Virus record (IMG/VR): IMGVR_UViG_2537562191_000046
Span: 1 to 9,858 of that record
From: a virus
Taxonomy: Duplodnaviria > Heunggongvirae > Uroviricota > Caudoviricetes
Direction: 5' to 3' (one strand)
Length of the DNA: 9,858 nt
Every line of letters begins with the position of its first letter. Positions within the stretch are counted from its first letter, which is position 1. The translations under genes and the position numbers were made by a program. Positions 326 to 796 of the stretch are shown one piece after another. A model generated the notes under the pieces. The model did no database searches. It was not told the origin of the DNA and saw nothing but the letters and a program-made list of their open reading frames with translations.

Positions 326-796
326 ATGACAAAATCATGGAGCGTACCTTTTCCTGAATCAGAAACTGAACATGATGGAATGCCTGTTTTCTGGAGATTC
401 CAGGCGACAGTTGAAGAAGATGGGATAAAAATATTCGCACTTCAATATATAGCTTTTCATCAGACAGAGCATTATGCATGGTTGGTTCCTGCGCATTGGA
501 TTGTTAATTTTAAACCAGCACCAAATCAGTGGTTACAGGAATGGAAACAAAGGAGAAATAGATATGCAATTAAGAAAGTAGCAAAAAATGCAGAAAGATC
601 TTTTGCATTCCCAACGAAGAAACTTGCTATTGAAAGTTTATTGCGCCGGAAGAAATACCATTTAATGAGAATAAAACAAGATTTGGCTGTTGTATCAACT
701 CTTGTTGATGGGATGAAGAATATTGATACATCAACACCAGATATTGAATATAACTTTGGACACAACCAAGAAACAGAAAACTGGGTGTTTTATTAG
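326..796 (+). CDS. Hypothetical protein, 156 aa, in a visibly AT-rich segment; accessory gene (moron) in the N-cIII slot
   Basis: ATG at 326 preceded by GAGGTG (316-321). The ORF is uninterrupted and its composition is visibly more AT-rich than the flanking lambda-like genes. It is followed by a hairpin and a terminator. I do not recognise the protein. Confidence 0.7.
   Translation: MTKSWSVPFPESETEHDGMPVFWRFQATVEEDGIKIFALQYIAFHQTEHYAWLVPAHWIVNFKPAPNQWLQEWKQRRNRYAIKKVAKNAERSFAFPTKKLAIESLLRRKKYHLMRIKQDLAVVSTLVDGMKNIDTSTPDIEYNFGHNQETENWVFY

Follow-up and report, generated by a model that had tools for sequence, protein, structure and literature searches.

A widespread gene between N and cIII of lambdoid phages encodes a conserved basic protein whose predicted fold matches nothing characterised

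We analysed a DNA window of 9,858 nucleotides (nt), which covers positions 1 to 9,858 of the IMG/VR virus record IMGVR_UViG_2537562191_000046 (Caudoviricetes), and we report here on the gene at positions 326-796 of its plus strand. The gene lies between the antiterminator gene N and cIII, encodes a protein of 156 amino acids (aa), and is called the 156-aa gene below. A reading made earlier from the letters alone (the sequence-only reading) had taken it for an unrecognised, novel occupant of the N-cIII slot and a candidate defence or counter-defence gene. We found that 326-796 does encode a protein and belongs, as an accessory gene, to the leftward (pL) early operon of lambdoid phages. The open reading frame (ORF) is already catalogued, in the genome records of 933W and HK97 and as PHROG 1636, and genes of unknown function in this slot are no surprise to a specialist in lambdoid phages. 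For its function and its predicted fold, nothing characterised offers a match.

Organization of the N-cIII locus

The left end of the window carries the following features, listed with coordinates, strand, identity and evidence.

1..267, +, antiterminator gene N, 3' part, of the 933W/H-19B/HK97 type (Pfam N_peptide, E 5.8e-11; N is annotated there in Stx2 phage 86 and 933W)
268..325, +, spacer of 58 nt between N and the 156-aa gene, holding GAGGTG at 316-321 (sequence; terminator and promoter scan)
326..796, +, 156-aa gene, equal to HK97 gp45, 933W L0079, Stx2-86 orf57 and phi24B vb_24B_11c, PHROG 1636 (ATG ORF; basic, soluble, beta + alpha protein)
806..843, +, RNA hairpin with a perfect 12-bp stem at 811-838 and arms 806-822 and 827-843 (fold; lambda alignment)
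901..925, +, intrinsic terminator GCCCTCCAGTGTGAGGGC with a T-run, hairpin at 901-918 (scan; the first after N; common to lambda, 933W and HK97)
921..938, +, junction at which ea10/ssb is cleanly absent (alignments with 933W and lambda)
939..965, +, second terminator-like hairpin with a T-rich tail, upstream of cIII and shared with lambda (scan; lambda alignment)
974..1032, +, cIII thermoregulator RNA element overlapping the cIII start (Rfam RF01804, 88.5 bits, E 4.6e-21)
987-1151, +, cIII (Pfam Lambda_CIII)

The gene is an ATG ORF at the place and on the strand where the sequence-only reading had put it. The strong ribosome-binding site claimed for it was found as well, as a Shine-Dalgarno sequence, GAGGTG, that ends 4 nt short of the ATG at 326. 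Its G+C content lies below that of its neighbours, again as claimed: the gene has 35.9%, with 26.9% at third codon positions (GC3), while the N fragment has 49% and the genes gam, bet and exo have 50-52% (GC3 55-59%). The end given for the N-like gene was wrong. N stops at 267 and not at 317, because 317 is the end of an ORF in another frame (201-317), and it is the N frame that matches N_peptide, phage 86 and 933W.

Alignment with the lambda segment from ral to cIII showed that near-identity starts at about 806, within about 10 nt of the stop of the 156-aa ORF. Collinearity with lambda downstream of the gene had been described correctly, but with a start at about 930, which is too far to the right. 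The near-identity extends over the 806-843 hairpin and the terminator at 901-918, is interrupted where lambda has ea10, and then continues across the second hairpin, the thermoregulator and cIII. In 933W the layout downstream of the gene is the same as in the window, but with ea10. The whole segment 790-965 folds far better than shuffled sequence (z = -5.4), and the HK97 record has a putative terminator annotated at the position equivalent to 901-918, after its gene 45. The hairpin and the terminator that had been ascribed to the gene itself are thus both present, but they are part of a shared lambdoid scaffold, since they are near-identical to the lambda ral-ea10 intergenic DNA. This scaffold would correspond to the tL2 cluster of Luk and Szybalski.

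As the alignments place it, the low-G+C cassette consists of the 58-nt spacer and the 156-aa gene, and stands in the exact place of lambda sieB-orf28-ral; its right-hand junction, by the same alignments, is marked by the 806-843 hairpin. With sieB-orf28-ral replaced and ea10 also cleanly absent (921-938), a single gene does occupy the slot instead of the lambda genes, in line with the sequence-only reading. The occupants in the phages compared were as follows.

lambda: sieB, orf28, ral, ea10
933W and phi24B: 156-aa gene, ea10
window, phage 86 and HK97: 156-aa gene alone
Sakai Sp5: a different N, then an unrelated 83-aa gene (ECs_1180), then ea10

This comparison agreed with the view of a variable accessory slot, with alternative occupants at one hotspot. 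Among 5426 complete E. coli genomes, ral was found in 875, the 156-aa gene in 598 and ECs_1180 in 403. Homology of the 156-aa protein to any of the other occupants was rejected, since its family profile scored at or below 0 bits on lambda Ral (-1.2), Orf28, SieB and Ea10 (-2.0) and on Sp5 ECs_1180.

Three observations on the slot are added here. The 12-bp hairpin (GUGUAUUCAUUC/GAGUGAAUACAC) is identical in lambda (after ral, ~34030-34070), 933W and the window, whatever the gene before it. Such conservation points to a function, for instance in RNA processing or stability or as a recombination linker; we know of no role that has been described for it. The window, phage 86 and HK97 cleanly lack ea10/ssb, which 933W, phi24B, Sp5 and lambda carry. 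The sequence GCATACCAATA is found both at the window junction 921-938 and at the right end of the ea10 segment in 933W (L002 3920-4340) and lambda (33536-33904), and this sharing suggests a recombination site at a module boundary. Lastly, the third occupant of the slot, ECs_1180 of Sp5 (L013 8721-8972), is a hypothetical protein of 83 aa with one hydrophobic stretch (KD19 1.68, on the 19-residue hydropathy scale).

Coding status and distribution of the gene

The possibility that 326-796 is no functional gene, being a chance ORF or a decaying remnant, has in its favour only that no record annotates it beyond 'hypothetical'. At the local base composition, the chance of one frame staying open for 156 codons is P ~3e-6, and only 1 in 2000 shuffles of the surrounding 700 nt reached an equal open run in any of the six frames. 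Pairwise ratios of nonsynonymous to synonymous substitution (dN/dS), taken among homologs 55-99% identical and wherever dS was unsaturated, were 0.04-0.17, nearly identical alleles included. Close homologs with 55-99% identity were found in Escherichia, Salmonella, Cronobacter, Pectobacterium, Brenneria, Rosenbergiella and Symbiopectobacterium. A search gave 33 of them in Enterobacterales, and full length is kept down to 55% identity in five genera. Shorter database entries are partials at contig ends, with no pseudogenes among them. The gene is present in 11% of the complete E. coli genomes, and 593 of the 598 carriers have it intact. The conservation data refute the non-gene explanation, and about 70 further relatives, a confident predicted fold (both described below) and the strong ribosome-binding site also stand against it. 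We regard it as so improbable that it can be set aside.

Over its first 1400 nt the window matches Shiga toxin (Stx) 2-converting phage 86 and two podophages of enterohaemorrhagic E. coli (EHEC) at 100% identity, and the 933W group at 98.4-98.7%, one 400-nt indel aside. At the protein level the window gene is 99.4% identical to HK97 gp45, and over the versions of HK97, 933W, phage 86 and phi24B its identity is 99.4-100%. These are the same protein in the same position after N, and the sole difference is that ea10/ssb follows the gene in 933W and phi24B and does not in the window, phage 86 and HK97. The gene was also found in H-19B, BP-4795, Min27, many Stx1a and Stx2a phages, and three new temperate phages of the BASEL collection. 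As an ORF the occupant is therefore not novel: it has been annotated for 25 years (HK97 gp45, 933W L0079), and it is a 'hypothetical protein' wherever a record annotates it, as in 933W, HK97, Stx2 phage 86, phi24B and many others. PHROG 1636, a family of unknown function, matches it end to end (residues 1-156 on positions 1-156 of 156, E 2.7e-112).

A literature search by names, locus tags, accessions, PHROG identifier and peptide fragments, which covered work outside subscription papers, found no mention of the gene. The 'gp45' of the OLD-sentinel preprint was considered as HK97 gp45 and rejected, as it belongs to phage HK578.

Family, predicted fold and charge

Searches of Pfam, NCBIfam, PADLOC and the Protein Data Bank (PDB), made with the single sequence and with a 50-sequence profile, returned noise only. 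Pfam gave nothing at E<=1 for the 156-aa protein, and the sole match in PADLOC-DB 2.0 was Cas1_II with E 0.018 and 12.4 bits, which is noise. The statement that the protein has no recognisable motif was thus borne out, in that no known motif or family was found in these databases.

An exhaustive profile search of 1.84 billion representative proteins gave 87 matches, with about 70 distant relatives of 125-165 aa and 17-28% identity. The distant relatives match solely PHROGs 1636, 13631, 25384 and 28215, all of unknown function, and no Pfam family. The PHROG 1636 profile is matched by 50 of 50 superfamily members, and a reciprocal tblastn with P0048 leads back to the 156-aa gene. When the superfamily profile was run against an annotated collection, no domain fusions and no informative names appeared; against the PDB it had no match. 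The 156-aa protein is hence a member of a phage-restricted superfamily, and profile search and structure prediction together matched it to no characterised family.

The core shared by the four PHROGs consists of a [YW]-[RK] strand, G33, E/Q-T at 46-47, K87, R-F-A at 92-94, A101 and R-K at 108-109, together with a basic helix and an acidic tail that ends in F, and the 156-aa protein fits this pattern. G33, K87 (49/50) and A101 (50/50) are near-invariant, and the aromatic-basic pair at 23-24 is conserved. The N-terminal motif S-W-x-V-P-F-P-[ED]-S (residues 1-18, window 326-379) is invariant in the Enterobacterales clade and absent from the distant superfamily members, which begin at about residue 19; judged from this pattern it may be a clade-specific docking peptide.

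AlphaFold reached a mean predicted local distance difference test score (pLDDT) of only 60 with the close homologs, and a pLDDT of 95.6 with a predicted TM score (pTM) of 0.81 when the 50-sequence superfamily alignment was supplied. The model has strands at 19-30, 33-46 and 50-55, helices at 56-61 and 66-74, a strand at 83-86 and an ordered C-terminal tail. The predicted fold is thus a long twisted beta-sheet with short helices, a very basic strand, a 33-residue helix (98-130) and an acidic tail. Structure comparison found no solved structure near it. A Foldseek search of BFVD returned 12 uncharacterised viral proteins at E<1e-3 (TM 0.44-0.77), from phages of Erwinia, Achromobacter, Delftia, Rhizobium, Sinorhizobium, Tenacibaculum and Cellulophaga. 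Three of the 12 belong to Schitoviridae and Ackermannviridae, which are families of virulent phages.

The protein has a mass of 18.6 kDa and an isoelectric point (pI) of 9.07; it lacks cysteines and is rich in aromatic residues (14.7%, including seven tryptophans). Its maximum 19-residue hydropathy is 0.56, against 1.73 for SieB, and it therefore has no membrane segment. Residues 80-118, which form the basic strand and the first half of the long helix, carry a net charge of +10 (superfamily median +8, range +4 to +12), and the C-terminal tail carries -6 (superfamily median -5). K87, the R91/S92 region, R108 and K109 make up a conserved basic patch. We considered the conserved E-T...K...R...H positions as an active site and rejected this, since E46, the sole conserved acidic position of the superfamily, is Gln in almost all close homologs. 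The same substitution argues against catalysis in general. We read the 156-aa protein as a predicted binding protein with a conserved basic surface.

Expression and genomic contexts

A scan of positions 1-1400 for sigma-70-like promoters found 0 sites, against 2.9 expected by chance. With no promoter predicted, the 156-aa gene would depend on pL. In lambda, the pL operon is shut off by the prophage repressor. Scans of the spacer at 268-325 found neither an intrinsic terminator nor a promoter-like site, and the first intrinsic terminator after N, the only type covered by the scan, is that at 901-918, after the gene. In lambda, N is classically the sole leftward gene made before antitermination, as tL1 follows it; in the window, the segment where tL1 would lie is replaced. 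Because no intrinsic terminator intervenes and the first one lies just after the gene, the 156-aa gene is predicted to be immediate-early together with N. It is probably co-transcribed with N from pL before antitermination, which would place its product among the first phage proteins made.

The order of N, gene and terminator is seen again in an unrelated lambdoid prophage of metagenomic origin (L023, 4768-5496), whose N and terminator both differ. Its N-like gene encodes 76 aa, of which only the last 37 can be aligned with 933W N (46% identity), and 2 nt separate the stop of this gene from the start of a homolog with 71% identity. At the stop codon of the homolog a strong intrinsic terminator starts, and its sequence is unrelated. 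As far as the sequence goes, this is a translationally coupled, more compact version of the same unit.

In E. coli lambdoid phages the gene comes after N. Elsewhere its surroundings differ. The homolog of Pectobacterium and Brenneria prophages closes the operon at its far end, next to xis and int. That of Bas81-like phages comes first in its operon, ahead of a ParB-like gene and RusA. Distant members from Vibrio and Pseudomonas phages and from a P22-like contig are part of recombination or replication modules, with RecE, AAA_24, a primase or an integrase nearby. No partner gene is kept across the contexts examined. On plasmids, just 11 records match the 156-aa gene, all of them non-mobilizable and phage-like, and the hypothesis of a plasmid leading-region gene was rejected on this ground.

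Possible functions of the 156-aa protein

The explanation that we favour, tentatively and at somewhat under even confidence, is that the 156-aa protein is an early host-directed binder. It would be a stand-alone, soluble, non-enzymatic protein produced at the very start of infection. Its conserved basic surface would bind nucleic acid or an acidic host protein stoichiometrically, and this binding would neutralise a host barrier or a host function early in infection. Stoichiometric binding rather than an enzyme is to be expected, because no catalytic residues are evident and the basic patch is kept across the superfamily. The protein would be an analogue of Ral by position, while its fold is unrelated and its target probably another one, and its role would not be that of a defence gene expressed in the lysogen.

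By analogy, a counter-defence role is plausible. The region that holds ral has been treated as a counter-defence hotspot in an accessory-gene screen (10.1101/2023.04.06.535777). The 156-aa gene shares the locus of ral: in lambda, ral ends at most about 10 nt away from the position of the cassette junction, the downstream DNA is common, and both are accessory early pL genes of similar frequency in E. coli (the 875 and 598 genomes given above). The two proteins differ in size (66 aa for Ral), and among the features of the Ral family that were compared, the 156-aa gene has the position only, downstream of N and upstream of the ral-ea10 hairpin and terminator. Lambda Ral lies beyond tL1 and is hence N-dependent, whereas no intrinsic terminator precedes the 156-aa gene. 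With T7 Ocr (gene 0.3) and other first-expressed counter-defence proteins it may share a logic, being small, stand-alone, apparently non-enzymatic and presumably among the earliest products; this is analogy and not membership. Ocr is a highly acidic DNA mimic, unlike the basic 156-aa protein, and no structural similarity was found between them. Ea10/Ssb-like proteins differ as well, as ea10 is a separate gene in 933W.

Several results weigh against this early host-directed binder. The position after N is not universal, given the Pectobacterium, Brenneria and Bas81-like contexts. The low dN/dS gives no sign of arms-race diversification. The basic patch would suit a regulatory DNA- or RNA-binding role equally well. 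Comparison with solved anti-defence proteins showed no resemblance in structure, nor did sequence searches, and the 156-aa protein was not found in the supplements searched of two large phage accessory-gene screens. One candidate link fell away: orf184 of Silas et al., which shares its accessory region with ral and sets off the gop-beta-cII abortive system, was considered as the 156-aa gene and rejected, because its model file begins with MEALVVERSEDGYWT. Finally, the scans addressed intrinsic terminators, and Rho-dependent termination may yet occur between N and the gene, which would bear on the proposed timing.

Three other functions have to be set beside the favoured one. The protein could be a phage-internal, nucleic-acid-binding regulator of transcription or antitermination, recombination or integration, with no part in host immunity. 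The basic patch, the coupling to N, and the xis-int and ParB neighbourhoods all fit such a regulator, as do matches to small beta-barrels of the Tudor/KOW/SH3-like type (PipX, the C-terminal domain of UvrD/PcrA, the KOW domain of NusG/Spt5). These matches are weak, however, and the gene is dispensable, which leaves this explanation rather unlikely, if a serious competitor. Alternatively, it may serve host takeover outside immunity, as a binder by which some core process of the host is inhibited or redirected. Many small proteins that modulate the host are encoded in the pL operon, such as Kil, which acts on FtsZ, and CIII, which acts on FtsH, and in the window this operon includes kil, cIII and gam. 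A stand-alone, apparently non-enzymatic protein with presumably early expression and relatives in virulent phages would be in keeping with takeover; yet the searches made showed no similarity to known host-takeover proteins, and the accessory distribution suits a conditional benefit better than a core takeover step. We therefore consider takeover distinctly unlikely.

A prophage-encoded defence or superinfection-exclusion protein that guards the lysogen, like SieB or Rex, was one of the options of the sequence-only reading, and it is the one that our data disfavour. In its support, lambda sieB lies within the segment that the cassette replaces, the gene has a low-G+C, moron-like composition, and its prevalence in prophages of pathogenic E. 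coli is high. But a lysogen-expressed gene is hard to reconcile with a place inside the repressed pL operon and the lack of an upstream promoter-like site. SieB has hydrophobic segments, whereas the 156-aa protein has no membrane segment and no sequence similarity to SieB; nor was there a meaningful PADLOC match. Moreover, fold relatives occur in virulent phage families, and homologs in Bas81-like and Pseudomonas phages have early lytic genes around them. Overall, a lysogen defence role appears very improbable.

The favoured early host-directed binder can be extended to a bolder proposal. In this case, the 156-aa protein would found a structurally new, phage-wide family reaching from temperate lambdoids to virulent N4-like phages and Ackermannviridae. 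Made at the start of infection, its members would use a basic surface to disable a host immune system or, with N, to re-tune RNA polymerase or termination, with a mechanism and target that have no characterised precedent. We regard this as possible but doubtful.

Significance

Among the genes of Shiga-toxin phages that lack a known function, the 156-aa gene is one of the most common; 933W, phi24B, H-19B, BP-4795 and many Stx1a and Stx2a phages carry it. The model phage HK97 has it too, and its locus is that of the lambda anti-restriction gene. If a counter-defence or host-takeover function were true, it would bear on the spread of Stx phages among strains of E. coli. Both HK97 and 933W lend themselves to genetics, and the question is thus directly testable. 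A confident model without a solved neighbour marks a fold family worth solving. The prevalence in Stx phages, the probable immediate-early status, this neighbourless model and the reach into virulent phage families together place the gene above the ordinary hypothetical protein.

Other features of the window

Between exo and an insertion sequence (IS) element come two genes, one Ea22-like and one of the DUF551 type, at 4055-4828 (+) and 5376-5978 (+). A P4-like integrase (Arm-DNA-bind_3 + Phage_integrase) at 8689-9858 (-) runs off the right end. Given the integrase at this end and the Ea22-like and DUF551 genes, the window takes in most of the early-left arm, with N at one end and int at the other.

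The IS element in this early-left region belongs to the IS3 family and covers 6231-7444 (-), with orfA at 7118-7444 (HTH_Tnp_1) and orfB at 6231-7121 (rve integrase core). The two frames overlap at an ALIL frameshift pseudoknot (RF01497, 121.5 bits, 7047-7163, -). At the IS coordinates, the Stx2 phage 86 record lists only 'orf43 hypothetical' and 'antB', and the element thus appears to be unannotated or mis-annotated there.
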